This document shows positions 2,900 through 61,221 of a stretch of 64,000 nt of DNA, piece after piece. How positions within the stretch are numbered: the stretch's first letter is position 1; every line of letters begins with the position of its first letter. A program made the position numbers and the translations under genes. Under the pieces are notes generated by a model, which was not told where the DNA came from, made no database searches, and saw only the letters and a program-made list of their open reading frames with translations. This stretch comes from Chitinophagales bacterium (GTDB lineage: Bacteria > Bacteroidota > Bacteroidia > Chitinophagales > JADIYW01). The DNA lies in the NCBI GenBank assembly GCA_020636535.1, contig JACJXT010000011.1, positions 1,316,812 through 1,380,811 on the forward strand, given 5' to 3'.

Positions 2900-4198
2900 A
2901 AGACCGTTGCAAGGCAGTGATAAAAAATAATATAGAATAATGCTAGTAGTTATACTATAATTTAGTATATTAGAGTTATGAAAATAAATAAGCCACTCAC
3001 ATTAGCAGACAGTATATGCGATACACGCGTAAAGAAAGTTAAACAAGTTTTCTTTACACAAATTAACCAGTTAATAGATTGGCAACAAATTAGTACAGTA
3101 ATAGATAAGTATTACACCAAAGGCACAAGTGCAACAGGCAAGCCAAGTTATGATGGATTGTTATTATTCAAAATCTGTTTACTACAAACATGGTACGGAC
3201 TAAGTGATTACGAAGTAGAAGACAGAATAAATGACAGCCTCTCCTTTAGTTCTTTCTTAGAATTAACCATAGACCAAACCTCACCAGACCATAGTACCAT
3301 AAGCAGATTTAGAACAGCAATGACAGGAGCAGGAGCATATGATGAATTATTAAAAAGCATAAACAAACAATTAGAACAACATCAAATACTAGTAAAGACA
3401 GGAGCTATAGTAGATGCCAGTATAGTAGAAACACCATTAAAACCCAAAGGAAAAAGTAATTATGAGCTTGAAGCACAACAACAACAACAAGAGCAATCAC
3501 AAGAAGTACCAACAAAGACGGTAGAAAAAAAATACAGTACAAGTGTAGACATAGAAGCAGCATGGATAAAGAGAGGCAAACAACTAAAATATGGCTATAA
3601 GAAACACTATGTAACAGACAACGAAGGATTAGTATTAGGCGTATTAACCACCAAAGCAAGTGTAAATGAAATTAGTAATCTAGAAACGGTATTAAAAACA
3701 GCAGACTTACCAAAAGACATAGCAGTAAAAGCAGACAAAGGTTATCAATCAGAGAAGAATAATGAATTGTTAAAGACATTAGGATTAAAAAATAACATAT
3801 TAAAAAAAGCAACTAAAAATAAAGCATTAACACAAGCCCAAACAGATTATAACAAACTAATAAGCAAAACCAGATATAAAATAGAACGCACTTTTGGCAG
3901 TATAAAAAGATGGTTTAACGGCGGTATAGCAAGATACAGAGGCATAGCCAAGATGCACACACAAAACATAATGGAAGCCATAGCATATAATTTATACAGA
4001 AGTCCAGGGATACTTATGTCCAAAGCATAAAAAAGCGAAGAAAAGTAAAAAAAAAGAGTACTAAACAAACAAAAATCAATCAAAAAAGATAAAAAATAAC
4101 AAAATAAGCCAATAAAACAAACAAATTAAAATATAACAAATATAAACTAATGAATATAATAAATAAAAAACAAAAATTTCACCTTTTGCAACGGTCTC
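2900..4198 (+). mobile_element. IS5-family insertion sequence
   Basis: Terminal inverted repeats AGACCGTTGCAAGG (2901-2914) and CCTTTTGCAACGGTCT (4182-4197). ATACT occurs immediately outside both ends (2895-2899 and 4199-4203) and may be a target duplication. The element encloses a DDE transposase. Confidence 0.8.
2978..4030 (+). CDS. IS5-family DDE transposase
   Basis: 350 aa. The N-terminal block GKPSYDGLLLFKICLLQTWYGLSDYEVEDRINDSLSF...HSTISRFR and the C-terminal YKIERTFGSIKRWF...RYRG are typical of IS4/IS5 DDE_Tnp_1 transposases. Confidence 0.88.
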   Translation: MKINKPLTLADSICDTRVKKVKQVFFTQINQLIDWQQISTVIDKYYTKGTSATGKPSYDGLLLFKICLLQTWYGLSDYEVEDRINDSLSFSSFLELTIDQTSPDHSTISRFRTAMTGAGAYDELLKSINKQLEQHQILVKTGAIVDASIVETPLKPKGKSNYELEAQQQQQEQSQEVPTKTVEKKYSTSVDIEAAWIKRGKQLKYGYKKHYVTDNEGLVLGVLTTKASVNEISNLETVLKTADLPKDIAVKADKGYQSEKNNELLKTLGLKNNILKKATKNKALTQAQTDYNKLISKTRYKIERTFGSIKRWFNGGIARYRGIAKMHTQNIMEAIAYNLYRSPGILMSKA

Positions 4199-4228
4199 AT
4201 ACTTATAATTTTTAGCATTTTTTACCCA

Positions 4229-4245
4229 GTTGTGCAACGGTCACC
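4229..4245. repeat. 17-mer GTTGTGCAACGGTCACC (copy 1), just downstream of the stop of the last cassette gene
   Basis: An identical 17-mer is at 55621-55637. Its reverse complement, GGTGACCGTTGCACAAC, resembles the IS5 terminal repeat GAGACCGTTGCAAAAG. Confidence 0.8.
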
Positions 4246-4264
4246 ATTGTTGCCTGTAGTACTT

Positions 4265-5275
4265 TTATGTAAAATATTCAGTTAATAAATGGCTTGCGTG
4301 CTTGTTTACAAATTTATTCACGGCTTTACTTTCGTGTTTTTCCAATGCGTCATATTCAGCTCGGTTTTCTTTGAGAAAGTCTGTTAGAATATCCTTGTTG
4401 AACATTCCTAATATTCGTCCATAGTCTTTTTTTGGGTTCACTTCGCCAATTTTACTAATCACATTATTCAGTCGATTTGCAGAAATGTACTTGTAAGCCT
4501 CTTGGCAAAGATTTTCCGCCTCTTCGCTCAACTCTTCGTCATCGTGCAAAATCTGTCGCAATATATCTTTGTCGATATAGTTATTGTTTTCAGACCAATC
4601 CTCGTTTTTGTTCTTGATTAGTATTCTCGAACCACTATTAAAGAACAAAGGTCTTACAGGTCGAATAACAACACCTTCGCAAATGTTGCCGTCAATTTCT
4701 GGTAACCCAAATTTAGCAGGTAAAGTACTTTTAAATCTATTTGGATATTCCAAGCATTCGTTTAAACTGCCTTTAAAAAGAGTATCTGCGTAAATAAATC
4801 CAAATTTTTCAAAAAGTTCATTTGTCTTTTGTACATCAAGATATTCCTCGCCATTTATTAGTATGTCAAATGCGAAAAACTCATTTTCTGGGTTGTAATA
4901 AATTCCTCTCTGCACCAATTTAGCATCTTTGCTAATCGGCACATCTTTGTGAGGGTAACCACCACCAATTAATTCGCCAAAAACGGTCAGAGTATTTAAT
5001 TCAAAACCTTTCGAAAGGTTTTGGAATAGTTCAATGACCTTGCTCTTATATATTTCTAGAACGGACTTCGAATTGTAGAAATTTTCGTCATCAGCTATCA
5101 TTTCGGTTCGTTTTGCTGAAGTTACTTCTTTCCCGTTGGTAATAAAGCTCAAATTCGCACCATGAGTTTTTTCCTGAACAATGTAATCTATTTCGGCAAA
5201 TCCTCCGTCAAAAATTGATTGTATAAACTCTTTTTGATATGAGTTTTCTATTGAATTGAACTTCTTAAATTCCAT
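4265..5275 (-). CDS. Rnl2-type ATP-dependent RNA ligase
   Basis: 336 aa. The N-terminus MEFKKFNSIENSY resembles that of T4 Rnl2. Nucleotidyltransferase motifs are present: I QEKTHGAN (the KxxG lysine), III VFGELIGGGY, IV CEGVVIRP, V ILIKNKN. Confidence 0.78.
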   Translation of the reverse strand: MEFKKFNSIENSYQKEFIQSIFDGGFAEIDYIVQEKTHGANLSFITNGKEVTSAKRTEMIADDENFYNSKSVLEIYKSKVIELFQNLSKGFELNTLTVFGELIGGGYPHKDVPISKDAKLVQRGIYYNPENEFFAFDILINGEEYLDVQKTNELFEKFGFIYADTLFKGSLNECLEYPNRFKSTLPAKFGLPEIDGNICEGVVIRPVRPLFFNSGSRILIKNKNEDWSENNNYIDKDILRQILHDDEELSEEAENLCQEAYKYISANRLNNVISKIGEVNPKKDYGRILGMFNKDILTDFLKENRAEYDALEKHESKAVNKFVNKHASHLLTEYFT

Positions 5276-5321
5276 TTTATGCTATTATTCTCAATGTTGG
5301 TTTGTATTATGGGCAACGGCT

Positions 5322-5432
5322 AAAAATTTGTGTTGTGGTTGCGTGAGCAAGACGAACTTAACTTACAACAGAACTATTAATTTATAAAATTACGAATATT
5401 TTCCAAATCTACCAACCATAACACAAATTTTT
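5322..5432. repeat. 20-bp inverted repeat with a 71-nt loop, between the HNH and ligase genes
   Basis: AAAAATTTGTGTTGTGGTTG (5322-5341) pairs with CAACCATAACACAAATTTTT (5413-5432), with one G-T pair on the + strand. GGGCAACGGC (5311-5320) lies next to it, and a TAGATTTG -7-like box lies on the - strand at 5404-5411. Confidence 0.7.
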
Positions 5433-5448
5433 TGTTACCACCAGTTTT

Positions 5449-6378
5449 TTAGTCTGCATATTTATTACTTCGTCCAATGTTACACTCATTGCATAATGTC
5501 CGCAAATTATTAAAAACTGTCAAGCCACCTTTTGAGTGAGGAGTAATGTGGTCGATATGTAATTTTATTCCGTCCTTGGGAGTTTTACCACATATTAAAC
5601 AAGTAGATTTGTCCCGATGAAGGACTTTAAAACGTAATGAAAGAGGAATAGCTCTTTTTGCACGTTGGTCTTTAATTACACTTGGCAACTCTTTTGTCGT
5701 CTCAATATTAGTTTCTAATGATTTGAATTCTGAACTGATATTTTTGAAGGAGGGGAACAACTCAATTTCATATCCCTTATTAGCCATAAAATGTCCTTTT
5801 AAAATTGAGACAACTAAAAAATCATTGAGAAACTTTTCGGCTGAAGTAGTTAAAAACTCGTTAGTTTTCAAATCAAATATTCCAAATAAAATGTCATTGT
5901 TGTCAGTAATGTCGTAACCAAGATTATTGAGAATTTCGGCAAATAAATACTGTTTTAATTTACGATGTGAAATCGCAAGATCTTTATGTCCGTCCAGTTG
6001 CTGAGTAAATGTCAATTTGGAAGTTAGTGAAAGTTGACTTGACTCGTCTTTATGTCGTGATAAATTTATTGTAAAAATCATTCCTGTACCTGAATTAGAT
6101 TCAACATAACTGGCAAGTCTGAAATGTTTATTACCAGAACTTGTTATGTTTTCATAAAGCTGAATATAAAACAAAAGTGTTTGTCCATTTATTACCACTT
6201 GAAATTGAAGCTTAAAGTCGAAAAGGTCTTTGCCAGAAAAGTTTGAAAACAGTCCTGACATTGTCCGCTTTGATTTTAATAGAAAGGAACCAACTTTAAT
6301 AAAGTCGTTTTTTAATGTCACCGTCTTTACTTTATTGGCAAAGTCAGTCAGTTCTTTTTTGGTCAGGTCTGTCGTCAT
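5449..6378 (-). CDS. HNH endonuclease-domain protein with an unrecognised N-terminal domain of about 230 aa
   Basis: The C-terminus CLICG...HIDHITPHSKGG...NLRTLCNECNIGRSN is a beta-beta-alpha-Me (HNH) motif. The track ORF runs to 6510, but its first 44 codons lie in the duplicated GC-rich element. The start is therefore placed at the ATG at 6378 (MTTDLTKKE...). Confidence 0.75.
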   Translation of the reverse strand: MTTDLTKKELTDFANKVKTVTLKNDFIKVGSFLLKSKRTMSGLFSNFSGKDLFDFKLQFQVVINGQTLLFYIQLYENITSSGNKHFRLASYVESNSGTGMIFTINLSRHKDESSQLSLTSKLTFTQQLDGHKDLAISHRKLKQYLFAEILNNLGYDITDNNDILFGIFDLKTNEFLTTSAEKFLNDFLVVSILKGHFMANKGYEIELFPSFKNISSEFKSLETNIETTKELPSVIKDQRAKRAIPLSLRFKVLHRDKSTCLICGKTPKDGIKLHIDHITPHSKGGLTVFNNLRTLCNECNIGRSNKYAD

Positions 6379-6390
6379 AAAAATTGGTGG

Positions 6391-6574
6391 TAACGTAGGG
6401 CGGATTTGCGAAGTCCTGAAGCGTGTAACGAAGTTACACAAAGCGAAAGGATTTTGCAAATCCGCTGATGTGTTGAAGGTCGTAGCGACAGCGAAGACCG
6501 TTCGACGCATCAGCGGATGTAATCCGCCCTACGATGTGCAAAAGACGCAGCGGTAGCGGAGACTTTTGCACATC
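6391..6574 (+). repeat. R4 GC-rich structured element, copy 1 (candidate ncRNA, 5' leader or folded recombination site)
   Basis: Identical to 58982-59165 except for the paired positions 6396 and 6531. A 12-bp closing helix, CGTAGGGCGGAT/ATCCGCCCTACG, encloses two long arms, followed by the 12-bp hairpin GATGTGCAAAAG/CTTTTGCACATC. Confidence 0.9.
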
Positions 6575-6575
6575 A

Positions 6576-6611
6576 CCCAAATATACGCAATAAAATAACT
6601 TGCGTATATTT
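6576..6611. repeat. mini-palindrome related to the R2 (CCCAAAT...) MITE ends; may also act as a + strand terminator
   Basis: CCCAAATATACGCAA-N9-TTGCGTATATTT followed by TTTTTT. The - strand reads TATATTTG (6578-6585), a Bacteroidetes -7-like box facing the R4 element and the HNH gene. Confidence 0.5.
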
Positions 6612-6761: not shown

Positions 6762-7020
6762 ATAGCATGAAGATGACTTCATACTATACTGAAGATGGCT
6801 TCATACTATACTGAAGATGGCTTCATACTATACTGAAGATGACTTCATACTATACTGAAGATGCTTCATGCTATACTGAAGATGCTTCATACTATACTGA
6901 AGATGACTTCATACTATACTGAAGATGACTTCATACTATACTGAAGATGACTTCATACTATACTGAAGATGACTTCATACCATACTGAAGATAACTTCAT
7001 ACTATACTGAAGACAACTCA
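6762..7020. repeat. tandem array of 11 full units of 21-22 bp (plus partial ends); each unit is a small hairpin
   Basis: The unit GAAGATGACTTCATACTATACT starts at 6769, 6791, 6813, 6835, 6857, 6878, 6899, 6921, 6943, 6965 and 6987. CTTCA-N8-TGAAG forms a hairpin across unit junctions. There are only point variants and no spacers. Confidence 0.95.
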
Positions 7021-7087
7021 ATCATTTTAGATTCCGTATATTTTTTGTTCCTCAAAATTACGGAAGGGTGGCAGTTTATTAAGTAAA

Positions 7088-7232
7088 GTGTTTTTTGATT
7101 TAGGAGATACTTTGTTCGTTTCCTCATTCAGTATAGGCAGTTGGTGGTAAAGAGTTGCTCTAAGTAAAATGTAATTTAATAAAACCGTCTATTGCAAGAT
7201 TTTGTGAAGCATGAATAAAATTGTGGCAATCT
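7088..7232. repeat. R1-family intergenic hairpin repeat
   Basis: GTGTTTTTTGATTTAGGAGATACTTTGTTCGTTTCCTCATTCAGTATAGGCAG ... AAACCGTCTATTGCAAGATTTTGTGAAG...AATTGTGGCAATCT. The two arms are imperfect inverted repeats. It matches 55295-55440 and 55518-55575. Confidence 0.7.
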
Positions 7233-7288
7233 CCAACTTCAGAATGCTAACAATAGATTTAAGTTAATAGCTATTCTTTTCTACAACC

Positions 7289-10760: not shown

Positions 10761-12095
10761 TTAACGATTAAATGACAATTGCAATCCTTTTTGGCTTTCA
10801 TCAAAAATACCATTATTATAAGCTAAGTGTCCACTTACAAAAGTATAATTTACTTTTCCTTTTATAGTCTGATTTTCAAAAGGCGACCAAGCACATTGGT
10901 ATAAAATATTGTCTTTATTTACTTGCCACAATTGATTAATATCTACGATAGCAATATCTGCGAAATAACCTGCTCTTAAATAACCTCTATTGTTAATTTT
11001 AAAACATTGAGCAGGAGCATGGCTCATCTTTTCTACAATTTTTTCCAAACTTATTAATCCACGATGATAAAAATCTAACATAATATTTAAACTATGTTGT
11101 ACCAAAGGAACACCAGATGGAGCTTGCCAATAGTACTGTTGTTTTTCTTCCCAAGTATGTGGAGCATGGTCAGTTGCTATAATATCTAATCGATTATCTA
11201 ATAACGCTTTCAATAATGCATCTTGATTTTCTTTTGATTTTATGGCAGGATTACATTTAATGAGATTGCCATATTGTGCATAATCATTAGCATTAAAATA
11301 CAAATGATGTACACATACTTCAGAAGTAATTTTTTTATCACTCAAAGAAAGTGCATTATCAAACAAAGCCAATTCTTTTTCAGTAGAAATATGCAAAATG
11401 TGCAGTCTTGTTTGATGTTTCTTGGCTAAATCAACAGCAAAAGAAGAAGATAAATAACACGCTTCATCATCTCTTATAATTGGATGAATTGCTGCTGTAG
11501 CACTATCACCTAATTTTTGTTGGTAATAAGCATTTCTTTCTTTTACTCTGTTTTCATTTTCGCAATGTGTAGCAATAAGCATTGGTGTATTAGCAAAAAT
11601 TTTGCTTAGTGTGTGTTCATTATCTACCAACATATTACCAGTAGAAGAACCCATAAAAATTTTAATACCACAAACTTCTTTGGTCGAAGTACGCATCACT
11701 TCATCGTAATTGTCATTACTAACACCCATAAAAAATGAGTAATTAGCCAGTGATGTATTTTTGCCAATTTGGTACTTATCTTCTAGTAGTTGTTGAGTTA
11801 AAGCAGGAGGTTTAGTGTTTGGCATTTCCATAAAAGAAGTTGTGCCACCAGCTACTGCTGCTTTGGCTTCGTTATAAATATGTGCTTTATGAGTTAAACC
11901 AGGTTCTCTAAAATGCACTTGGTCGTCAATAATTCCAGGAATGACATATTGATTCTGAGCATCAATTATAGTAGCAGTATCGTGTGAAATATCACTATCA
12001 ATTTTACTAATAATTTGGTCTTCAATTAATATATCTTGCTGTATAATTTTTCCTTCGTTTACTACTTGTCCGTTTTTTATTAAATATCTTTTCAT
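10761..12095 (-). CDS. pyrC: dihydroorotase-type cyclic amidohydrolase
   Basis: 444 aa. Metal-binding DDQVHFREPG (HxH) and ATDHAPH motifs of the type I dihydroorotase/allantoinase family are present. Confidence 0.78.
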   Translation of the reverse strand: MKRYLIKNGQVVNEGKIIQQDILIEDQIISKIDSDISHDTATIIDAQNQYVIPGIIDDQVHFREPGLTHKAHIYNEAKAAVAGGTTSFMEMPNTKPPALTQQLLEDKYQIGKNTSLANYSFFMGVSNDNYDEVMRTSTKEVCGIKIFMGSSTGNMLVDNEHTLSKIFANTPMLIATHCENENRVKERNAYYQQKLGDSATAAIHPIIRDDEACYLSSSFAVDLAKKHQTRLHILHISTEKELALFDNALSLSDKKITSEVCVHHLYFNANDYAQYGNLIKCNPAIKSKENQDALLKALLDNRLDIIATDHAPHTWEEKQQYYWQAPSGVPLVQHSLNIMLDFYHRGLISLEKIVEKMSHAPAQCFKINNRGYLRAGYFADIAIVDINQLWQVNKDNILYQCAWSPFENQTIKGKVNYTFVSGHLAYNNGIFDESQKGLQLSFNR

Positions 12096-12167
12096 GTTTT
12101 TTAGTTCTCAAATTATAGAATAGTCAAAAATAAGGTATAAAAATTTATCTTTACAAAAAATAAACCT

Positions 12168-13937
12168 ATGCATTTAGCACTCATCGATTGGATTATCATT
12201 GCCAGTTCTTTTTTATTATATCTTTTCGTAGGATTAAAATATGCCAAACAAGCTGGAAAAAATACCGAAGAGTTTTTCTTAGGTGGTAGAAGCATGGGCT
12301 GGTTACTTGCTGGCGTGTCTATGGTAGCTACTACTTTCGCTGCAGATACACCTTTGGCAGTTGCTGAAATTGTAGGTAATAATGGTATTTCTGGCAACTG
12401 GATTTGGTGGAGTTTTCTTGCAGGTGGTATGCTAACAACTTTCTTTTTTGCTAATCTTTGGCGTAGAAGTGGCGTATTGACCGAAGTCGAACTAATCGAA
12501 CTCAGATACCATGGAAAACCTGCTCAGTTATTACGAGGTTTCAAAGCCATTTATTTAGGTGTATTTATCAACTGTATTATTATTGCTTGGGTAAATGTTG
12601 CCATGTCTTCTATACTACAAGTATTTTTCGATTTATCACCAGAAAAAGCACTTTTTTATACTGCACTTGCTATGGCATTTGTAGCAGTTTATACTTCTGT
12701 TTCTGGTTTAATGGGCGTTGCCGTTACCGATGCTGTTCAGTTTGTTATTGCAATGACTGGCTGTATTATTTTAGCAGTTTTAGTCGTTACTTCTGAAAAA
12801 ATTGGAGGCATTCACGGTTTAAAAGAGCAAGTCAATGCAGTTGCTCCTGGTGCTTTAAATTTCTTTCCATCAATTAGTTCTGGTAGTGGAGGTGCTAAAA
12901 TTTTTGCTATTTCTGCTTTGTCATTTTTTGCTTATTTAGGTGTACAATGGTGGGCAAGTTGGTATCCTGGTGCAGAACCTGGTGGTGGTGGATATGTGGC
13001 TCAAAGAATGATGAGTACTAAATCTGAAAAAGATGCAGTTTATGCTACACTATTCTTTCAAATTGCTCATTACTGTATTCGTCCTTGGCCTTGGATTTTA
13101 GTCGGATTAGCTGCAATGGTTTTATATCCAAATTTAACAGGAGGTGATGTAAAATTAGGATATGTTTATGCAATGAAAGACTTTTTACCTACTGGTTTAA
13201 AAGGATTATTACTGGTAGCTTTTTTCGCAGCTTATATGAGTACAATTGCTACTCAATTAAATTGGGGAACAAGTTATGTAGTCAACGATTTTTATAAACG
13301 ATTTATAGAACCTAAAGCAACAGAAAAACAATTGGTTGCTACAGCAAGAATTACTACCATTATTTTAATGATAATCGGATTGGCGGTTAGTACTAAAGTC
13401 AATTCTATTTCTGGAGCGTGGTCGTTTTTAATGGAGTGTGGTGCAGGCTTAGGTTTAGTTTTGATACTACGATGGTATTGGTGGCGAATTAATGCTTGGA
13501 GCGAAATTGCGGCTACAATTGCACCTTTTGTTATTTATACAATTATTTCTATCTTACGATTAAAATATCCAAACGCTACTTATTTACAATTTCCAGATAG
13601 TTTTTTAATTACAGTTGCTGGTACTACAATAATTTGGATTATAGTTACCTTTCTTACTAAACCAACAGCTACAACTACGCTACAAAATTTTTACGATAAG
13701 GTACAACCAGATGGAGCTTGGTCGCCATTTAGAAACAAGCAAAACTATAACAGTAGCAACCTAATCAATCTTTTTATTTGTTGGATTAGTGGCATCTGTT
13801 TTACTTATTCTACACTCTTTTTTATAGGAAAACTTATCTTAGCAGAATGGAAAAGTGCTGTAATATTTGGTGCAACTTTATTGGTCAGTTTGTTTATCTT
13901 TACAGCAGTAGTTAAAAAAACGACAATCTTTAAATAG
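12168..13937 (+). CDS. sodium:solute symporter (SSF) family transporter
   Basis: 589 aa polytopic membrane protein. SSF-like blocks include FFLGGRSMGW and GGGYVAQRMMS. Confidence 0.85.
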   Translation: MHLALIDWIIIASSFLLYLFVGLKYAKQAGKNTEEFFLGGRSMGWLLAGVSMVATTFAADTPLAVAEIVGNNGISGNWIWWSFLAGGMLTTFFFANLWRRSGVLTEVELIELRYHGKPAQLLRGFKAIYLGVFINCIIIAWVNVAMSSILQVFFDLSPEKALFYTALAMAFVAVYTSVSGLMGVAVTDAVQFVIAMTGCIILAVLVVTSEKIGGIHGLKEQVNAVAPGALNFFPSISSGSGGAKIFAISALSFFAYLGVQWWASWYPGAEPGGGGYVAQRMMSTKSEKDAVYATLFFQIAHYCIRPWPWILVGLAAMVLYPNLTGGDVKLGYVYAMKDFLPTGLKGLLLVAFFAAYMSTIATQLNWGTSYVVNDFYKRFIEPKATEKQLVATARITTIILMIIGLAVSTKVNSISGAWSFLMECGAGLGLVLILRWYWWRINAWSEIAATIAPFVIYTIISILRLKYPNATYLQFPDSFLITVAGTTIIWIIVTFLTKPTATTTLQNFYDKVQPDGAWSPFRNKQNYNSSNLINLFICWISGICFTYSTLFFIGKLILAEWKSAVIFGATLLVSLFIFTAVVKKTTIFK

Positions 13938-23469: not shown

Positions 23470-23891
23470 GTAAAACCACTTTAAAGTTAAGCCAAGCTGC
23501 TAAAAAACTAAGCCAGTTAATTAAAAATGTAAACCGAGTCACTTCAAATCCAAACCAAGTTAGGATAAAACCTAAGCTGACTTATGTTTTAAGTAGGTAG
23601 GTGTACTTAAAACACTAATCAAGTTAAGGTAAAAAGTAAACCAAGTTTAGTTAAAACATTAAGCCAATTTATGTTTGAGGTGGTATATACCACTTGTATA
23701 AGTAGGTAAGTCTACTTAAAACCCAAACCAAGTTAGGGTAAAAGGTAAACTGAGTTAATGTTTTAAGTGGGGTGGAGTACTCAAAATCTAAGTGAAACTG
23801 ACAAAATGGGTGGCTACCCCCCCTTCCGAAGTGGGGGTGGGTACTTCTGAAGTGGAGTAAATTGTTAATTTTATGCCAAAATGGCAGTTTT
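23470..23891 (+). repeat. R3 modular repeat region A (candidate long structured ncRNA)
   Basis: Reiterated modules ...ACTTAAAA(C)CCAAACCAAGTTAGGRTAAAA...AAGCTGRCTTATGTTTTAAGTGG.... The conserved 3' module is AAACTGACAAAATGGGTGGCTACCCCC-hairpin-GTACTTCTGAAGTGGAGTAA, then TGCCA-AAA-TGGCA plus TTTT. No ORF of 60 aa or more is listed for 23285-24102. Confidence 0.8.
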
Positions 23892-24102
23892 AGTGTGTTT
23901 TGTTTTAGTAAGGAAGAATGACGAAGCTATCTCTCTTTACCAACAGCGTAGCAATTTAACCTTTTTGTTATTAATAAAGAGATATTTTGTTCGTATCTCA
24001 CCCAATATAAATGGAGATAAAAATATATTTTTCATTTTTAGTATAGTAAAATAATATAGATTAAAAATATTTATTACCTTGTTGAGGAATTAATTAATAT
24101 TT

Positions 24103-47023: not shown

Positions 47024-47488
47024 TTTTGCTTTTATCGGTCGGTGTCTTCACCGACCAGTTTTTTTTATATTGTGCAGCTAGATATTGTGTGCTGTTAGAA
47101 GTTTCCTTCTGACATTTTTTCGAGTGTATCACCAAACAAAATCATCTATTTTTTATTGAACTTATAAGGATTTTGAATACAAAATATATGCCTACGCTTT
47201 CACTAATCACTTATATTAATTGCAATGATATTCAACGCTGTTTTGATTTGCTTTTATCGGTCGGTGTCCTCACCGACCGAAATATTTTTCGTGCTGTCAG
47301 AAGTTTCCTTCTGACATTTTTTCGAGTGTATCACCAAACAAAATCATCTATTTTTTGTTGAACTTATAAGGATTTTGAATACAAAATATATGCCTACGCT
47401 TTCACTAATCACTTATATAGATTGCAATGATATTCAACGCTGTTTTGATTTGCTTTTATCGGTCGGTGTCTTCACCGACAGAAATATT
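47017..47488 (+). repeat. tandem duplication (about 202-bp unit, 2 copies) that reiterates the purM 3' end and terminator hairpin three times
   Basis: The unit boundaries GTGCTGT(T/C)AGAAGTTTCC are at 47089 and 47291. ATCGGTCGGTGTC(T/C)TCACCGAC is at 47034, 47256 and 47458. Each unit also carries the hairpin GTCAGAAG-TTTC-CTTCTGAC followed by ATTTTTT. Confidence 0.9.
47037..47066 (+). terminator. intrinsic terminator after purM
   Basis: 8-bp GC-rich stem GGTCGGTG/CACCGACC with a 4-nt loop, then AG plus T8, 14 nt after the stop. Confidence 0.8.
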
Positions 47489-48005: not shown

Positions 48006-49625
48006 TTAACTTACTTTAATGCTTTCTAAAATTGCTGTTGCTACTTGTTTGCCAGTTGCTGCTGCTCCGTTCATAAATCCTTGAAATAGTTCGCTACAAT
48101 GTTCGCCTGCAAATAAAAAGTTGCCAATTGGTTCTATTTCTAATCCAGCAATGGTTGACCATTGTCCGACTTTATAACAACTGTAACTTCCTTTAGCAAA
48201 AGGATAATCTATCCAGTTGACAAAAACATGTTTATCTAAGAATTTTTCTTTTGATTTAGGAAATACTGAGTTTAAATCGTCTACCATTTTATTTACTGTT
48301 TGTTCTGGTAATTCAGTTTTCCAAACATGTGTTGGTGGTGCCATTTTATTCTTGAAGGATTGTGCATTTAAGTTCTCTGAGAATTTTCCACCAAAAAAAC
48401 AAATATATGCATTGTTTATATTATTTTCTGTTTTTGTATAACTTCCGTCCCAGCCATTTGAAATATCTTTATGAAATAAATAACCCATAGCATGATTTGG
48501 TTGTTCTCGCCAAGGTCGATCTTTATATCCTAGCACCAATTTTGTATTAGTACCATAACCTAATTCATCAATACATTTTCTTTTTTTAGAAGATATATTT
48601 TTTAAATCGAGTTTTATTTTTCTAAGAATAGTAAACGGAATAGTACAAACAATTGCCTTTGCTACAACAGTAGATTCGTCTGTGAATGTAATTAGGTAAG
48701 TACTATCTTTTTGTTCTTTAATAGCTTTTACTTCGTGATTGGTTTTTATTTTGTTTGAACCAATTTTTCCAACCAATGCTTCTATTACTTTAGAGTTGCC
48801 ACCTTTAATTCTATAGCGTTCATCACTAGCACCAAATACTTTAAATCCATCGTTGGTATTGGTGTCAATCATATCTAAAAAATTTAGTGTAGATTGTTCA
48901 CTACAATCTAATCCAAACTCTGCAATATAAGCTGCATCTAAAATATCTTTTAACCATTGCTTACAGTTTAATGATTTGAAATAATCGGATAATGGTGTAT
49001 TGTCAAGTGCAATTGCTTTTTCTGTATCATAATTTTCGCCTAAAGCATCAATGTCTGCTACTAATTTTGGAGCGATATTTTTAAACTCTGCTATGATTTC
49101 TGTTTCACTAATACTTCTATTATCAAAATAATATATGTCTTTAATATAATTATTTACTTCTTGTTCTTCTACTAAATCAATTAATTCCAAATTAAATTCT
49201 TTTGCCAAATCAAGCATATCTTCATGGTCAGAATCAATAAAATCGCCACCAAATTCAGGAAAAATACCTAAGCCAAGCGAATCGTTATAGTGTGTCAAAA
49301 TTCTACCACCTAATCGTTTACTTGCTTCAAATATTTGAAAAGATAAATTACTTGGTAATAGATGATTAGCACAATTTAAACCAGCCATTCCACCACCTAA
49401 AATGGCAACATCTAAAATGTTTTCATCAGATTTATTTTTACAAGCAGTCAGTAGATTAGGTAATGACAGTGCAATACCTGCACCTACACTTGCTTTTGCA
49501 GCATTGCTAATGAATTTTCTTCTGCTTTTTATAAATGGTTGGTGTCGACACCAACCATTAGCAATAATCTCTTGATTTAATAAACTTAATAAAGTACTAA
49601 GTGTTTTGTTTTTTGGTTTTCTCAT
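48006..49625 (-). CDS. FAD-dependent amine oxidase (flavin monoamine / L-amino-acid oxidase family) with a Tat-like signal
   Basis: 539 aa. It has SRRKFISNAAKASVGAG (twin-arginine-like), the dinucleotide-binding ILGGGMAGL...FEASKRLGGR, and a C-terminal FAGEH block. Confidence 0.8.
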   Translation of the reverse strand: MRKPKNKTLSTLLSLLNQEIIANGWCRHQPFIKSRRKFISNAAKASVGAGIALSLPNLLTACKNKSDENILDVAILGGGMAGLNCANHLLPSNLSFQIFEASKRLGGRILTHYNDSLGLGIFPEFGGDFIDSDHEDMLDLAKEFNLELIDLVEEQEVNNYIKDIYYFDNRSISETEIIAEFKNIAPKLVADIDALGENYDTEKAIALDNTPLSDYFKSLNCKQWLKDILDAAYIAEFGLDCSEQSTLNFLDMIDTNTNDGFKVFGASDERYRIKGGNSKVIEALVGKIGSNKIKTNHEVKAIKEQKDSTYLITFTDESTVVAKAIVCTIPFTILRKIKLDLKNISSKKRKCIDELGYGTNTKLVLGYKDRPWREQPNHAMGYLFHKDISNGWDGSYTKTENNINNAYICFFGGKFSENLNAQSFKNKMAPPTHVWKTELPEQTVNKMVDDLNSVFPKSKEKFLDKHVFVNWIDYPFAKGSYSCYKVGQWSTIAGLEIEPIGNFLFAGEHCSELFQGFMNGAAATGKQVATAILESIKVS

Positions 49626-54377: not shown

Positions 54378-55286
54378 CGATTGTTTTTTAGCTTGCTTAG
54401 TTAAGTAATTTAAAACACCTAAAGAAATTATAAGTATTTGATTTATATTGTATTAGTTGCATATTTTAGTAACTTAATAAGTGCGTAGTACTTTAACTTT
54501 ATTAGAAATGATAGAAAATTTATAAAATACAGCGTAGCTGTATCACCTTTAATATCTGTTTAAATTTAGATTGTTGATAAACGGTATTTTATAATAGCTT
54601 TTAACTCGAACTCAGGTTAATATAAGCCGAGCCACTTAAAATCCAAACCAAGTTAAGTTAAGAACTAAGCTGGCTTATGTTTTTGCTAAATTGAGTAATA
54701 AAAATACTAAACTATGGTACTTTATAAGTGTACTCGGTCGCTTTTTAAACTCAGTCAGTTAAGTAATAATATAAGCCGAGCCACTTAAAAACCAAACCAA
54801 GTTAGGTTAATAACTAAGCTGGCTTATGTTTTTGCTAAATTGAGTAATAAAAATGCTAAGCTATGGTACTTTGTAAGTGTACTCGGTCGCTTTTTAACTC
54901 AGTTAGTTAAGTAATAATATAAGTCGAGCTACTTAAAAACCAAACCAAGTTAGGGTAATAACCAAGCTGGCTTATGTTTAAAGTGGCTATGGGTACTTAT
55001 ACAAGTGGAAGAAGGGGACTTAAAAGATAAACTTAGTTGAGTTAAAACATTAATGTAGTTTAGGTTTAAAGTGGTATCCTGTACTTCTATAAGTGGGTTG
55101 GTATACTTAAAACCTAAACCAAGTTAGGGTAAAAACTAACTCAGCTTATGTTTTAAGTGGGGTGAGCTACTTAAAAACTAAGTAAAACTGACAAAATAGG
55201 TGGCTACCCCCACTTCGGAAGGGGGTTAGCGTACTTCGGAAGTGGAGTAAGTGACTAAATTTGTGCCAATATGGCAGTTTTTTTTT
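54378..55286 (+). repeat. R3 modular repeat region B (candidate long structured ncRNA), with three units of about 149 bp in tandem
   Basis: Units start with TATAAG(C/T)CGAGC at 54621, 54770 and 54918. The modules and 3' module (AAACTGACAAAATAGGTGGCTACCCCC...GTACTTCGGAAGTGGAGTAA) are the same as in region A. It ends with TGCCA-ATA-TGGCA plus T9 (55278-55286). An R2 fragment is inserted at about 54478-54550. Confidence 0.8.
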
Positions 55287-55294
55287 ATTTTTCG

Positions 55295-55440
55295 TTTTAG
55301 TAAGGAGATACTTCGTTTGTTCCTCACTTAGTATAGACGGTTGGTTAAAAATGGCTCTCGATACTATAAGTAAAATGTAATTGATAATTAGACCGTCTAT
55401 TGCGAAATTTTGAGAGGAACGAACAAAATTGTGGCAATCT
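55295..55440. repeat. R1-family intergenic hairpin repeat
   Basis: TTTTAGTAAGGAGATACTTCGTTTGTTCCTCACTTAGTATAGACGG ... GACCGTCTATTGCGAAATTTTGAGAGGAACGAACAAAATTGTGGCAATCT. The arms are mutually inverted. Confidence 0.7.
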
Positions 55441-55517
55441 GAATCGTTAGACTGCTATAAAGTATATTGCTTCGCTACTTTCATCCGTTCGCAAAGACGA
55501 GGATTATTTTAGTTGTT

Positions 55518-55620
55518 GTGTTTTTGATTTAGGAGATACTTCGTTCGTTCCTCACTCAGTATAGACGGTTAGTTGATGGTGAGACAGAGTTCTCTATCGA
55601 GTAACTCTGATGGGTGAGAA
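55518..55620. repeat. R1-family partial copy plus the CAGAGTT...AACTCTG hairpin
   Basis: GTGTTTTTGATTTAGGAGATACTTCGTTCGTTCCTCACTCAGTATAGACGG, then the hairpin CAGAGTTCTCTATCGAGTAACTCTG (55585-55609) and GATGGGTGAGAA, as at 1498-1538. Confidence 0.65.
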
Positions 55621-55637
55621 GTTGTGCAACGGTCACC
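55621..55637. repeat. 17-mer GTTGTGCAACGGTCACC (copy 2), downstream of the methyltransferase stop
   Basis: Identical to 4229-4245. It lies 33 nt from the stop at 55671; copy 1 lies 19 nt from the stop at 4265. Confidence 0.8.
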
Positions 55638-55670
55638 GATGTTAGGCACAGTCGTTTTTTTCGTTAAGTT

Positions 55671-57656
55671 TTACACAAGTTCTAATTCAATACTTTCAAT
55701 TTGTTCTTTGGATGCTTGTCGCAATTCAAATGCTTTTTTCATTTTATTACTAATGTCCTCAATTGTTTTTTGTTCTGGCAAATGAATAATGATGTTTGCC
55801 AAGTCAATGTCTGAAACATTTGGAATGGCTGCACCTGTACGATACATAAACATTTGCTTCAAAAACATTTCCGATTTCAAATAATAAAGCAAATAATATT
55901 TGTCAATTTGAAAGTTACGCAAAACTCTAAAACCATTGGTACAAATACTTCCTGCAAACTCGTCTATTACAAAGGCTGTTGCGTGTTTTCGTGTTCCTAC
56001 GGAATTTCCTGCAATCGCCGTAATGATGTCACCTTGTTCAATTTCATAACTTGCTCTACTTGGCAATTCGTGAACTTGGTGAGTTGTTGAATTGATAATT
56101 TCGTATGAATGAGTATTGATGTCCGAAAGTTCAACATATTCAACAGTCAAATTCGGGTCTTTTAGTTTTCTGCTTTTTATTTTCACGATTTCACAAATAT
56201 CTCCCAAGCGAACTGTTTTTGTGTTATTCAAATTAGAAAACATTTTACGATTTTCGGGCGAATAAAAATCAAAGTCAAAACGTCCATTAAGTTCGTTGAA
56301 TTGGATTGAAAATGCGTTGTCATTTTCCACATTTTTACCTTTTTGAAATGATTTGTATGCTTCAATAATTGTCGAAAAATCTTCGTCTAAAATTGGCTGT
56401 CCATTTTTGTCTTTTATGATTTGTCCGAATTTGTCTTTTTGGTAGAGTGGTGTTCCATTTTTGTTGCCTTGATAACCTAATTTAGTAACTCTACCAAAGA
56501 AAATAGGATATTGACGTTCTTCGTTTTTGCTGTCTTTTTCTAAAAATAACAACGAAGTTTTTACGCCTGTGCCGTATGGAATAAAAGTTTCTTGTGGTAA
56601 ATTCACAATAGCCAAAACTTTTGCTTTTTGCTTGATATAATAACGCAAATATTCCAAAGACGGATTTTCAAAATTTCCGTTTGGCAAAACGATTGCCATT
56701 CTTCCGCCTTCTTTCAAAAGTTGTAAGCAACGTTCAATAAAGAGAATTTCGGCATTTTGATTGGCATAAACTGTTTTAGATTGATAAAATTCCTTTTCAT
56801 GATTTCCCCACTTATGACCCAAGTCAAATTTTGACAAAACAGACGATTGTGTAATTTTTGCACCGAATGGCGGATTAGTTAAAATCAAATCAAAACCATT
56901 TTTTTGACCTAATGAAAGTTTAATACTGTCTAAATCTTCTAATGAATTAGTGCAAAGAATGTTTGTTTTTCCGTTAGCTTCCAAAAGCAATTTCATTTTG
57001 GCAATTCGGGCAATACTTCGATTGATGTCTAAGCCGAAAATGTTTTGTGAAACGGTTTTTGAAGTGTTCAAATTTTGATTGTTTATTTGTAGATATTTCA
57101 AAGCCGACATCAAAAAACCGCCACTTCCACAAGCTGGGTCAATAATTGTTTCGCTTGTTTTTGGTTGCATAATTGCAACGCAAAAATCAATGACAGGCTC
57201 TGGTGTAAAAAATTGTCCTCGTCCGTCTTTCTCGTGGTGCGATAAAAACTTTTGAAAAGCCAATCCTTTTGCGTCTTGCGATGAGTCAAGCAATGAAATT
57301 CCCTGCAATTTATTGACTGTAAAACCAAGAGCGTTTTGACTTAGTTTTATACGGTCGTCCGTATCAAAAATGTCTTTATATTCTTTTTGTGTTTTATCAA
57401 ATAAAGCAGCTATTCGGTCGGAAAATGAAGAAACATTTTTACCCAATTTTATATCATTCCATTCTTCAGAAGAAACGGAAAACTGTTTTAGTTTTTCGTT
57501 TTCGTCAAAAATTTTGATGAACAAAATTTTTACAAACTCCTCCAAAGTTTGTTGCGGAGACAAGCCGTCATTGGCATAAATATAGTCGTGAATTTCCTCA
57601 AACCTTTTTAAAAGGTTATCTTCTTTGGAAAGTTCTATGTCAAATAAAGAATTCAT
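55671..57656 (-). CDS. N6-adenine DNA methyltransferase with a fused C-terminal target-recognition (HsdS-like) domain
   Basis: 661 aa. It has an HsdM-N-like N-terminus (FVKILFIKIFDE), SAM motif I IIDPACGSGGFL and catalytic motif IV LTNPPFG. The C-terminal 190 aa or so starts LGDICEIVK, like a type I S half-domain. Confidence 0.88.
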   Translation of the reverse strand: MNSLFDIELSKEDNLLKRFEEIHDYIYANDGLSPQQTLEEFVKILFIKIFDENEKLKQFSVSSEEWNDIKLGKNVSSFSDRIAALFDKTQKEYKDIFDTDDRIKLSQNALGFTVNKLQGISLLDSSQDAKGLAFQKFLSHHEKDGRGQFFTPEPVIDFCVAIMQPKTSETIIDPACGSGGFLMSALKYLQINNQNLNTSKTVSQNIFGLDINRSIARIAKMKLLLEANGKTNILCTNSLEDLDSIKLSLGQKNGFDLILTNPPFGAKITQSSVLSKFDLGHKWGNHEKEFYQSKTVYANQNAEILFIERCLQLLKEGGRMAIVLPNGNFENPSLEYLRYYIKQKAKVLAIVNLPQETFIPYGTGVKTSLLFLEKDSKNEERQYPIFFGRVTKLGYQGNKNGTPLYQKDKFGQIIKDKNGQPILDEDFSTIIEAYKSFQKGKNVENDNAFSIQFNELNGRFDFDFYSPENRKMFSNLNNTKTVRLGDICEIVKIKSRKLKDPNLTVEYVELSDINTHSYEIINSTTHQVHELPSRASYEIEQGDIITAIAGNSVGTRKHATAFVIDEFAGSICTNGFRVLRNFQIDKYYLLYYLKSEMFLKQMFMYRTGAAIPNVSDIDLANIIIHLPEQKTIEDISNKMKKAFELRQASKEQIESIELELV

Positions 57657-57705
57657 ATATTACACATTTGTGTCAAAAATAAAACACAAATGTGTAATAC
57701 GCAAA

Positions 57706-58653
57706 TTATCTTCCGTCTAATTGACTTTTATCTAGTTTTCTATACTTCGGTTTTGTTTCTTGAATACACAAATCAAGGTCGTCATACCAAGGTTTTAAAA
57801 GTTTGTGTCTTTGGAAATTGTCTTTTGCAGTCAAAATATCAATCGTATAATTTTGTTGCAAATGATTGGGAGACTTGGCTTGATGATTCAAGTCGGTACT
57901 ATTTACAAAAACCAATTCGTGTTTTCCTGTTTTCAAAAACAAATCCACACATAAAATATTAAATTCAGAAACCAAAGGTCCTGTGCTTTTAATTTTTGTT
58001 TTTGTATCTATTCTTGTCGATGGCATATGCGTTTGCAATAAACGAATTGGTGCGGTCAAATCCCAATAAGCATTTTCGTTAAAATCTTCTTCTTTGAATG
58101 ATTTTAACCATTTAGCAATGTCCTCTTTTGAGTTCCAAAGTCCTGTTAAATCAGGAACTCCTGCACCCGGATTTTCTTTACTCCAACGAAATTTCGGAAA
58201 GTTACCCGCATTTTTCTGTTCCCAATTGACTTTTGCTTTTTCGTAATTTCGACTGCCCGAATTGTAAATGCTTTCAATTTGCTTTTTTCTCTCAATTGAA
58301 TGTTTATTGAGTAATGTCAAACAAGAAGAAATTTTTGTTAAACCGCTTCTTTTTTCGGAATTAGATTTTACTCCTTTACACTCCACTACTAACCATTCAT
58401 CTTTAGTTGACCCAATTTTACGAATATAAAAATCCCCTCTTGCATCATCACTTTTTGCATTATTTCCTCCTTCGGGTTTTTCTTTTATTCTTAACGCTTC
58501 GTAACCAATAGAGTTAGCATATTCTTTAAAAAGTTCTTCTCCAAGATTTCCTAAAATGTAGCCTTCTGCTCCTGGACTTTTGATAAGTACTTCCAAAAAT
58601 TTGTTTTCATCAATACCGAATTTGCGATTGATATAGTTTTTTAATAAATCCAT
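57706..58653 (-). CDS. putative PD-(D/E)xK restriction endonuclease
   Basis: 315 aa. GDFYIR...(17 aa)...VVECKG fits D...ExK. It sits between an XRE controller-like gene and the methyltransferase. Confidence 0.6.
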   Translation of the reverse strand: MDLLKNYINRKFGIDENKFLEVLIKSPGAEGYILGNLGEELFKEYANSIGYEALRIKEKPEGGNNAKSDDARGDFYIRKIGSTKDEWLVVECKGVKSNSEKRSGLTKISSCLTLLNKHSIERKKQIESIYNSGSRNYEKAKVNWEQKNAGNFPKFRWSKENPGAGVPDLTGLWNSKEDIAKWLKSFKEEDFNENAYWDLTAPIRLLQTHMPSTRIDTKTKIKSTGPLVSEFNILCVDLFLKTGKHELVFVNSTDLNHQAKSPNHLQQNYTIDILTAKDNFQRHKLLKPWYDDLDLCIQETKPKYRKLDKSQLDGR

Positions 58654-58655
58654 TA

Positions 58656-58862
58656 TTAGTCTTTAAATAGTTCTGTAATTGGAACATTTAAAGCAATGGC
58701 AAGTTTTTCTGCAATAACGATTGATACGTTCCTTTCGCCTTTTTCAATGCTTGGAATGTATGTCCTGTCGATTTCAGCAATTAATGCAAGTTTCTCTTGT
58801 GATAGACCTTTTTCTAATCGCAGACGTTTTAAGTTATTGCCAAATTTTTGCTTAATGTCCAT
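58656..58862 (-). CDS. XRE-family HTH regulator (controller C-protein-like)
   Basis: Start set at the ATG at 58862 (MDIKQKFGNNLKRLRLEKGLSQEKLA...), giving 68 aa. It has a classic HTH_3 pattern, and its stop abuts the endonuclease start. Confidence 0.75.
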   Translation of the reverse strand: MDIKQKFGNNLKRLRLEKGLSQEKLALIAEIDRTYIPSIEKGERNVSIVIAEKLAIALNVPITELFKD

Positions 58863-58981
58863 AGCACAAAAGTCTCTATTTGTAGAAAACTGTACAACGG
58901 ACAATCATCAACTTTTTTGCTTTGTTTGGATTTATTTTTGAAAAGATTGAATTTTATGCGGTTCGTTCATACGATTGTGCA

Positions 58982-59165
58982 TAACGGAGGGCGGATTTGC
59001 GAAGTCCTGAAGCGTGTAACGAAGTTACACAAAGCGAAAGGATTTTGCAAATCCGCTGATGTGTTGAAGGTCGTAGCGACAGCGAAGACCGTTCGACGCA
59101 TCAGCGGATGTAATCCGCCCTCCGATGTGCAAAAGACGCAGCGGTAGCGGAGACTTTTGCACATC
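58982..59165 (+). repeat. R4 GC-rich structured element, copy 2
   Basis: Identical to 6391-6574 except G58987 (T in copy 1) and C59122 (A in copy 1), which pair with each other in the closing helix. Confidence 0.9.
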
Positions 59166-59290
59166 GGTCTCGGGTATGAAACGTAGGGCATTTCGGAGCC
59201 GCGTACTTGTCCACCGAGACTAAGCTTGCTTAGAACCCGAAACTTGCGGAATCCACTGTCCGCCCTATGTTTTATACTGTATCGTCCTAA
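59166..59290 (+). other. GC-rich extension of R4 copy 2 (absent from copy 1), possibly the rest of the same structured element
   Basis: GGTCTCGG...CCGAGAC (8/7 bp), CTAAGC-TT-GCTTAG, GTAGGGC...GCCCTAT and GGAGCCGC...GCGGAATCC can pair, and some pairings cross (pseudoknot-like). It ends at an A-run. The same position in copy 1 holds the mini-palindrome 6576-6611. Confidence 0.4.
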
Positions 59291-61035: not shown

Positions 61036-61221
61036 ACTGTTTTTTATAGCACAATTTGCATAAGGGTATAGAACGGAAAGCCCACAGCGACGATAGGAGC
61101 GAGGACTTGTAGTGATAGCCCGACCGTAATGTAATGGAGGTTATGCCATGAACTTAGTTTTTAGTCATTTCTCAATAGTTATTTATATTTGCAATTATTA
61201 CATATAAAAATAAGTGTATAA

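Follow-up and report, generated by a model that had tools for sequence, protein, structure and literature searches.

Integrons are the textbook platform for gene-cassette capture. Complete integrons are almost unknown in Bacteroidota, yet Riemerella resistance genes integrate without homology. The IntegronFinder 2.0 listing holds a single complete integron from Bacteroidetes, that of Salinibacter ruber (PMC9024848). [quoted passage not shown] Here, we analyze a stretch of 64,000 nucleotides (nt) from a Chitinophagales bacterium (assembly GCA_020636535.1, contig JACJXT010000011.1, positions 1,316,812 to 1,380,811 of the forward strand), hereafter the window, which contains two copies of a 184-nt repeat. 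We estimate at about 0.68 the probability that this unit consists of an attC-like single-stranded-DNA recombination site and a micro-cassette lacking an open reading frame (ORF), both belonging to an integron-like system of Flavobacteriales. Such a system, so far only hinted at in the literature, most likely moves defence and antibiotic-resistance genes; its enzyme and its present activity are what we infer.

The repeat and its predicted fold

The two copies are direct, 184 nt each, and differ at only two positions, T6396 versus G58987 and A6531 versus C59122, which are the two partners of one pair in a 12-bp closing helix. They are the only copies seen in the 64 kb of this genome that were searched. 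Since the 52 kb separating them contain housekeeping genes, they are not the termini of a single island. The repeat has a G+C content of 51%, compared with 31% for the window. ORFs traverse it on both strands, and its six-frame translation had no match among 5.8 billion proteins. The + strand folds with -109 kcal/mol (z = -12.7; none of 200 shuffles did as well) and the - strand with -89 kcal/mol (z = -10); the predicted + strand fold has 71 pairs, including 4 G.U. These observations bear out the original prediction, made from the letters of the window, that the copies are identical save for one compensatory pair, that they are richer in G+C than their surroundings, that ORFs cross them on both strands, and that two long arms, which are indeed present, lie within the closing helix. 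The parts of the unit are as follows.

6391..6574, + strand: copy A of the 184-nt unit, read as an attC-like three-way junction followed by hairpin P4, with support from covariation
6394-6405/6522-6533, + strand: closing helix P1 of copy A
6406-6459, + strand: arm M1 (helix P2) of copy A
6460-6518, + strand: arm M2 (helix P3) of copy A
6519-6521, + strand: junction GTA of copy A
6533..6574, + strand: hairpin P4, read as an ORF-less micro-cassette, whose end boxes GATGTGC and GCACATC pair with each other
58982..59165, + strand: copy B of the 184-nt unit, with the anatomy of copy A shifted by +52591 and with G58987/C59122 replacing T/A

The hairpins of the unit resemble each other. M2 (6463-6515) and P4 are paralogous, with a common base (GATGTG.../...CA(C/T)C) and a common cap (G-N-A-GCG-NN-AGCG-R-A-G). 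M1 carries the same cap motif, interrupted by an inserted hairpin, and GGATGTAATCC is a collapsed form of its stem, in which G.U pairs are retained at fixed positions among copies. Because M2 and P4 are paralogous, the M1 cap is split and a collapsed M1 stem exists, the 184-nt unit looks like the product of two rounds of site stem plus micro-insert. The end boxes of P4 resemble degenerate forms of GTTGTGC and GCACAAC. The best explanation of this anatomy is that an attC-like site makes up the first ~143 nt, in which P1 encloses M1 and M2, and that P4 is a degenerate ORF-less micro-cassette.

Constraint on the fold in a second strain and in homologs

The metagenome-assembled genome (MAG) GCA_020436205.1 is identical to the window over 3985-6608 (~2.6 kb) except at 6396 and 6531, where it carries G and C as in copy B. 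By our own estimate, the chance that the second of two substitutions in ~2.6 kb restores the Watson-Crick partner of the first is ~1e-4. Such a paired double substitution between strains needs either selection for pairing or a templated process. Another MAG of the same organism, GCA_041392425.1, differs from the window by many single-base indels; this pattern is typical of an unpolished long-read assembly, and its differences inside the repeat are therefore uninformative.

Relatives of the repeat were found upstream of a restriction-modification (R-M) cassette, described below as C-R-M, in metagenome contigs that we numbered L107-L120, where they start with ATAACG(G/C)TTCGGCGGATTTG(C/T)GAAGTCCC. 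Two contigs (L111 and L112) have the long form, which keeps both the three-way junction and the 3' hairpin of the repeat, and four (L107, L113, L114, and L118) a one-hairpin form. In L111 and L112 a second copy lies downstream of C-R-M, in the same orientation, directly before a CAT gene or a secreted-protein gene. Many of the short-read contigs end within the relative, as expected of repeats. Using blastn, the L111-type copy matched R. anatipestifer plasmid NZ_CP081933.1 with 77% identity over 133 nt (E = 1e-14); the plasmid relative has the same three-way junction and 3' hairpin and folds with -105.6 kcal/mol on the + strand and -81.3 kcal/mol on the - strand. The window repeat itself had no blastn match among phages and plasmids, and only the L111-type relative reached Riemerella. 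An 18-mer scan of genome contigs returned chance matches only, cap-motif patterns in viral contigs returned only tandem repeats, tRNA D-arms and chance sites, and further pattern scans of viral contigs, together with a protein-based scan, gave no matches.

We assessed covariation in five long-type copies representing three sequence types (the two window copies, L111, L112, and the Riemerella plasmid). Because MAFFT aligned these copies wrongly over their 3' half, the outer part of P1 was aligned by hand. In this set, 95.5% of cells were paired, compared with 30-50% in slid controls, and 8 of 32 aligned pairs were altered on both sides yet remained paired, a value reached in 0 of 500 shuffles. 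The P1 alignment showed compensatory pair changes in 4 of 13 columns, the inner one of which (A-T/C-G) is already counted among the 8, and in two lineages P1 has an extra nucleotide on both sides of the helix. Modules were gained, lost, or collapsed between copies. In all 10 family copies the better fold is that of the + strand, the one that serves as bottom strand for the cassette genes. Because the strain pair differs only at paired positions and the homologs covary, the sequences support a structure under constraint, as the original prediction had proposed.

The regions upstream of HNH-gene homologs (82% and 73% identity) are of the ordinary AT-rich kind and lack the repeat, and in other organisms the C-R-M cassette aligns to window positions 55617-58912, the homology stopping 70 nt short of the repeat; judged from these alignments, the repeat is not tied to its neighboring genes. 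An association of the repeat with the HNH family was rejected on the first of these grounds.

Cassette boundaries and the box rule

The R. anatipestifer plasmid pRCAD0416RA-1 carries eight genes in the same orientation with long hairpins between them: lnu(I), relE, an HTH gene, blaOXA, tet(X), estT, a phosphotransferase gene, and aph(3'). In the array estT-tet(X)-blaOXA-TA-lnu(I), where TA stands for toxin-antitoxin, a hairpin of attC-like type occupies every intergenic region. On the gene strand, the sites have the layout N7AAC-A(A/T)-stem...stem-(A/G)CC-GTTN7. Eight of nine are 137-141 nt long, the remaining one being 200 nt, and in eight of nine the better fold is on the strand antisense to the genes, under RNA as well as DNA parameters. 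The cassettes follow a rule: the start box (GTT followed by N) is the reverse complement of the box (N followed by AAC) found after the last gene. This rule is obeyed by 8 of 9 cassettes with 9-10 of 10 nt matching, including tet(X), lnu(I), relE-HTH, estT, the phosphotransferase gene, aph(3'), and aadS. The exception is blaOXA (11806-12970 in our extracts L129/L130), whose start box GTTGTGCGTC mismatches its end box TGCCACTAAC; since that end box also precedes lnu(I), the mismatch suggests a past site-by-site rearrangement. The box coordinates around aph(3') give 29 and 139 nt, compared with the published 27 and 140 bp, and the published integration experiment thus supports the unit boundaries defined by the boxes.

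Four cassettes on the - strand of the window also obey the rule: the HNH cassette (10/10), an ORF-less mini-cassette (9/11), the Rnl2 RNA-ligase cassette (7/9), and the C-R-M cassette (13/15, counted by eye between GTTATGCACAATCGT and GTTAGGCACAGTCGT). C-R-M obeys it in at least 10 contigs of other genomes as well, where its boxes differ but remain mutually complementary (GTTATCTGTCATTC and GAACGACAGATAAC, 13/14 by eye). The left edge of the repeat, TAA↓C (the arrow marks the predicted crossover), coincides exactly with the start of the mobile cassettes: on the + strand, the first cassette starts right beside a box reading (TGG)TGGTAA↓C or GCATAA↓C. The exact reverse complement of this junction box at copy A, GTTACCACC(A), recurs at 5434-5443, 6 nt past the HNH stop codon. 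On this reading, the edges of the repeat are sharp because the unit spans one predicted crossover (TAA↓C) to the next (CAT↓C). At both copies the near box, ...TAAC, is the cassette junction, and the far boxes read GATGTGC/GCACATC in the window and GCCACAAC in L111. The junction and the cassettes are located as follows.

6385..6394, + strand: junction box TGGTGGTAAC, complement of the HNH cassette start GTTACCACCA, in which the predicted crossover separates A6393 from C6394 (gene strand, G↓TT)
5434..6393, - strand: HNH cassette, with start box GTTACCACCA, the HNH gene at 6378-5449, and end box TGGTGGTAAC at 5443-5434; its boxes are complementary at 10/10 positions
5332..5422, - strand: ORF-less mini-cassette of 91 nt, with ends GTTATGGTTGG and GCAACCACAAC, 9/11 complementary
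4249..5317, - strand: Rnl2 RNA-ligase cassette, with start GTTGCCCAT, the gene at 5275-4265, and end box ACAGGCAAC, 7/9 complementary
55641..58985, - strand: C-R-M restriction-modification cassette, with start box GTTATGCACAATCGT at 58985-58971 and end box ACGACTGTGCCTAAC at 55655-55641
58862-58656, - strand: C gene (control protein) of C-R-M
58653-57706, - strand: 315-amino-acid (aa) gene of C-R-M, presumed restriction endonuclease
57656-55671, - strand: methylase-specificity (MTase-S) fusion of C-R-M

The repeat had been described as lying directly 5' of the first gene of each cassette. Its distances to the HNH ATG (12 nt, at 6378) and to the C-protein ATG (119 nt, at 58862) are correct, but it is not a member of either cassette, lying outside both at the insertion junction. 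An identical 18-mer, GGTGACCGTTGCACAACT, closes both window arrays, after the Rnl2 cassette (4245-4228, - strand) and after the C-R-M methylase (55637-55620, - strand).

Neighboring genes and other repeats

Three further features adjoin the copies.

59166..59277, + strand: structured extension adjoining copy B, GG-TCTC-GGGTATGAAACGTAGGGC...GCCCTATGTTTTATAC, which shares homology with the 5' part of sites S3 and S4 of the Riemerella plasmid pRCAD0416RA-1
59314-60744: IS3 insertion sequence (IS) element, inserted just past this extension
6578..6585, - strand: Bacteroidetes-type -7 box TATATTTG, within the right flank ACC(C)AAATATAC and directed through the repeat toward the cassettes

From its sequence, we interpret the extension as another attC-like site, belonging to a different sequence type. 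GCACATC-GG of P4 aligns with GCACAAC-GG, the 5' box of S3 and S4, at a position where L111 reads GCCACAAC-GG. Beyond the IS3 element, a GC-rich stretch at 61045-61160, located after a 288-aa gene (- strand) and with end boxes GCATAAG and GTTATGC, may be a further attC-like site. The right flank is kept in six contexts (window copy A, L107, L112dn, L113, L114, and L118), and its TATATTTG box, which the original prediction had located at 6585-6578 and we found there, may serve as an array promoter.

Among the cassette genes, the 315-aa C-R-M protein has no Pfam match and 144 cluster members at >=90% identity. The sequence TTGCACAACT lies 3' of the C-R-M cassette in most other genomes too. The 309-aa HNH protein (5449-6378, - strand) has an HNH domain that scores best against the IscB and Cas9d HNH domains of NCBIfam, far below the cut-offs, and its N-terminal 250 aa had no match. 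Homologs of this protein occur in defence islands with GmrSD, PDDEXK, and AAA_15 genes (as in L104). Transposases of the IS5-like and IS256-like types are found beyond the HNH and Rnl2 genes at copy A.

The window contains other repeats as well. A 22-nt tandem array (TGAAGATGACTTCATACTATAC, ~11 copies) lies to the right of copy A at 6768-7013, and the otherwise near-identical strain GCA_020436205.1 has an unrelated ~43-nt repeat in its place (positions 1-130 of our extract L106). Since strains carry unrelated repeats there, this region is a hypervariable array. A family of inverted repeats resembling miniature inverted-repeat transposable elements (MITEs) (GGAGATACTTCGTTCGTTCCTCAC... / AGACCGTCTATTGCGAAATTTTGAGAGGAACGAAC) flanks both accessory regions (7074-7249, 55279-55457, 55503-55574, 1345-1417, 23953-24020, and 48230-48272). 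Two hairpins, at 1498-1526 and 55585-55613, have identical stems and 3' tails (AACTCTGATGGGTGAGA) and inverted loops; the second stands immediately after the C-R-M cassette and may be another site. Related copies of a 149-nt tandem repeat lie 31 kb apart, at 54594-55291 and 23501-23901, each block ending with a GC-rich structured segment and a terminator-like GCCAAAATGGCAGTTTT, and the block at 23.9 kb is upstream of a 1064-aa gene. Finally, 47082-47485 holds a 202-nt tandem duplication (96% identity) with terminator-like GGTCGGTG...CACCGACC hairpins.

Proposed mechanism and points against it

The reading as a capture site leads to the following model. When single-stranded, as in the lagging-strand template or in DNA incoming during natural transformation, the + strand (the bottom strand for the cassette genes) would fold into the three-way junction, with helix P1 presenting the box ...TAA↓C at its foot. 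At TAA↓C, which reads G↓TT on the gene strand, a putative site-specific recombinase would then exchange strands with the corresponding site carried by a circular or single-stranded cassette. Cassettes would thereby be inserted directly beside the repeat: copy A would have received HNH, the mini-cassette, and Rnl2, and copy B would have received C-R-M.

Several points weigh against this reading. A motif regex revealed no tyrosine-recombinase or integrase motif in the 64-kb window, no integrase or tyrosine recombinase is annotated on pRCAD0416RA-1, and no integron was reported within 100 kb of the aph(3')-IVb integration site (PMC13148043). The boxes match the integron consensus RYYYAAC/GTTRRRY only in part. 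On the far side of the repeat they read GAT/ATC instead of GTT/AAC, and that end may therefore be inactive. Several window sites are collapsed to ~30 nt, shorter than any known attC. Just two copies were seen in the 64 kb of this genome, and their recombination is a prediction from sequence comparison. An RNA would fit the G.U pairs equally well, and also the large folding energy computed for RNA. An unconstrained scan of the AT-rich window for complementary GTT/AAC 10-mers gave 780 pairs, compared with 889 expected; since this is not above chance, the box rule rests on the position of the boxes beside a stop codon and a hairpin.

More tentatively, these data may point to a second integron-like platform in Flavobacteriales that has no linked integrase and uses ~138-nt sites folded from the bottom strand. 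A host or novel recombinase, possibly acting on incoming single-stranded DNA during transformation, could shuffle defence cassettes (R-M, HNH, RNA ligase, and TA) and resistance cassettes, and the 184-nt unit could be a mobile ORF-less cassette that seeds arrays.

Alternative explanations

The repeat could instead encode a structured RNA, either a small RNA (sRNA) transcribed from the + strand, divergently from the cassettes, or a 5' leader of a - strand cassette mRNA starting from the TATATTTG box. The very stable RNA fold, the G.U pairs kept on the + strand, and the covarying helices would all be expected of an RNA, and the cap common to three hairpins (G-N-A/GC/GNNA/GC/G-N-A) could bind a protein. 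Promoter-like boxes are also present: the - strand has a -7-like box immediately next to copy A, and the + strand has one 42 nt upstream of copy B. These boxes, however, are not part of the repeat and differ in strand from one copy to the other, and the copies have no promoter or terminator in common. The favored strand is antisense to the genes, so that a leader would use the weaker fold, and HNH homologs elsewhere do without the repeat. Unrelated resistance genes carry relatives of the repeat at their 3' ends and move together with them, and the repeat edges are cassette junctions. No Rfam family matched: covariance scans of the window and the homologs, at gathering and at E-value thresholds, gave only weak microRNA and RAGATH-7 hits far below gathering, and ARAGORN returned only tRNA-Cys, in line with the lack of a known RNA noted before. 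An RNA role thus fits the context poorly, and we consider it unlikely. Of the three roles offered by the original prediction (sRNA, 5' leader, and folded single-stranded-DNA site for cassette capture), the last fits best, because the repeat edge coincides with cassette junctions, the relatives separate cassettes of the same orientation, and the favored strand is antisense to the genes.

Quite unlikely, in our view, is a non-autonomous MITE or decaying palindromic DNA with no site-specific role, its pairing maintained by template switching within inverted repeats and its location reflecting a region tolerant to insertions. In its favor, many other intergenic repeat families occur in the genome, both copies have IS elements in their vicinity, and modules have come and gone between copies; template switching could also yield the paired double substitution without selection. 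Against this, the unit begins with TAACG... and ends with ...GCACATC, and it has no terminal inverted repeats, its flanks being unrelated and free of target duplication. Its orientation relative to the downstream genes is constant in every context seen, the start-box/end-box rule spans unrelated cassettes, the Riemerella sites vary little in length (137-141 nt), and integration of such a unit was shown experimentally (PMC13148043).

Membership in the repetitive extragenic palindromic (REP)/REPIN family, spread by the single-strand transposase RAYT (TnpA-REP), is very improbable and was rejected: copy A does read 5'-GTAG-GGC...GCC-CTAC-3', as do the long REPs with a double foot that are reported for RAYT subclass 2.4, which is present in Cyanobacteria and Bacteroidetes (PMC6006769), but the GTAG foot of copy A is replaced by GGAG in copy B and the second strain, by CTTC in L111/L112, and by GCTC in Riemerella, the 64-kb window has no HUH-Y1 motif, and the high-GC proteobacterial REP doublets with a common GTAGGGCGGATT returned by a metagenome scan with the closing helix are unrelated. 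Readings as a retron, an IscB-type omega RNA, a bridge RNA, a single-strand promoter, or a terminator were dropped, there being no partner gene, promoter hexamers, or T-run.

Comparison with known systems

REP/REPIN elements share with the repeat a GC-rich extragenic palindrome and a strand-specific fold, as well as the GTAG...CTAC double foot of copy A. They differ from it in that the foot is variable here, no RAYT was seen, the copy number is low (two per 64 kb, and the short-read contig of the second strain assembled through the repeat), and the edges coincide with cassette boxes and junctions. Xer/dif modules and the CTX phage provide a loose analogy, in which host tyrosine recombinases act on short inverted boxes, CTX using a folded single-stranded hairpin without a linked integrase. 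A Xer-like host enzyme would explain the absence of a nearby integrase. The link is conceptual only; the boxes here are spaced by 10-14 nt or ~120 nt, compared with 6-8 nt in Xer/dif.

A further comparison is with integrons. Like attC sites, the repeat and its relatives are imperfect inverted repeats that would fold as single-stranded DNA with the bottom strand favored, with a cassette junction at the predicted crossover G↓TT and an inverse-core box ending in AAC that is complementary to the cassette start. Integron arrays likewise contain cassettes in the same orientation, including ORF-less, TA, and resistance cassettes, and have a promoter-like element at the array edge, to which the -7-like box of the right flank would correspond as the sole Pc-like feature. 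The differences are that neither intI nor attI was found near the repeat, that the box complementarity extends here to 10-15 nt, and that the flanks read AAC-GG and CC-GTT. With ~150 nt from box to box (184 nt for the whole repeat), the window element is outside the attC length range of 57-141 nt, and the Riemerella relatives (137-141 nt) are at its upper limit.

Also close are the Riemerella aph(3')-IVb-type units with their attC-like 3' stem-loop. The published account covers one gene and a structural resemblance (PMC13148043), without the box rule, the arrays, the strand bias, the defence cassettes (R-M, HNH, and Rnl2), or the occurrence outside Riemerella. Our analysis provides explicit and checkable sequence rules for Riemerella-type integration (boxes, crossover point, site length, and strand) and extends homology-free cassette integration beyond Riemerella and to R-M, HNH nuclease, and RNA-ligase cassettes. 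With these rules, the search for the recombinase becomes directly testable, and Flavobacteriales cassette arrays, which current integron finders apparently miss, could be annotated. The organism of the window differs from Riemerella, being another member of Bacteroidota with 31% G+C and known from MAGs only. The repeat belongs to a related sequence family with the same architecture as the Riemerella plasmid relative, and the unit boundaries set by the boxes agree with those published for aph(3')-IVb.
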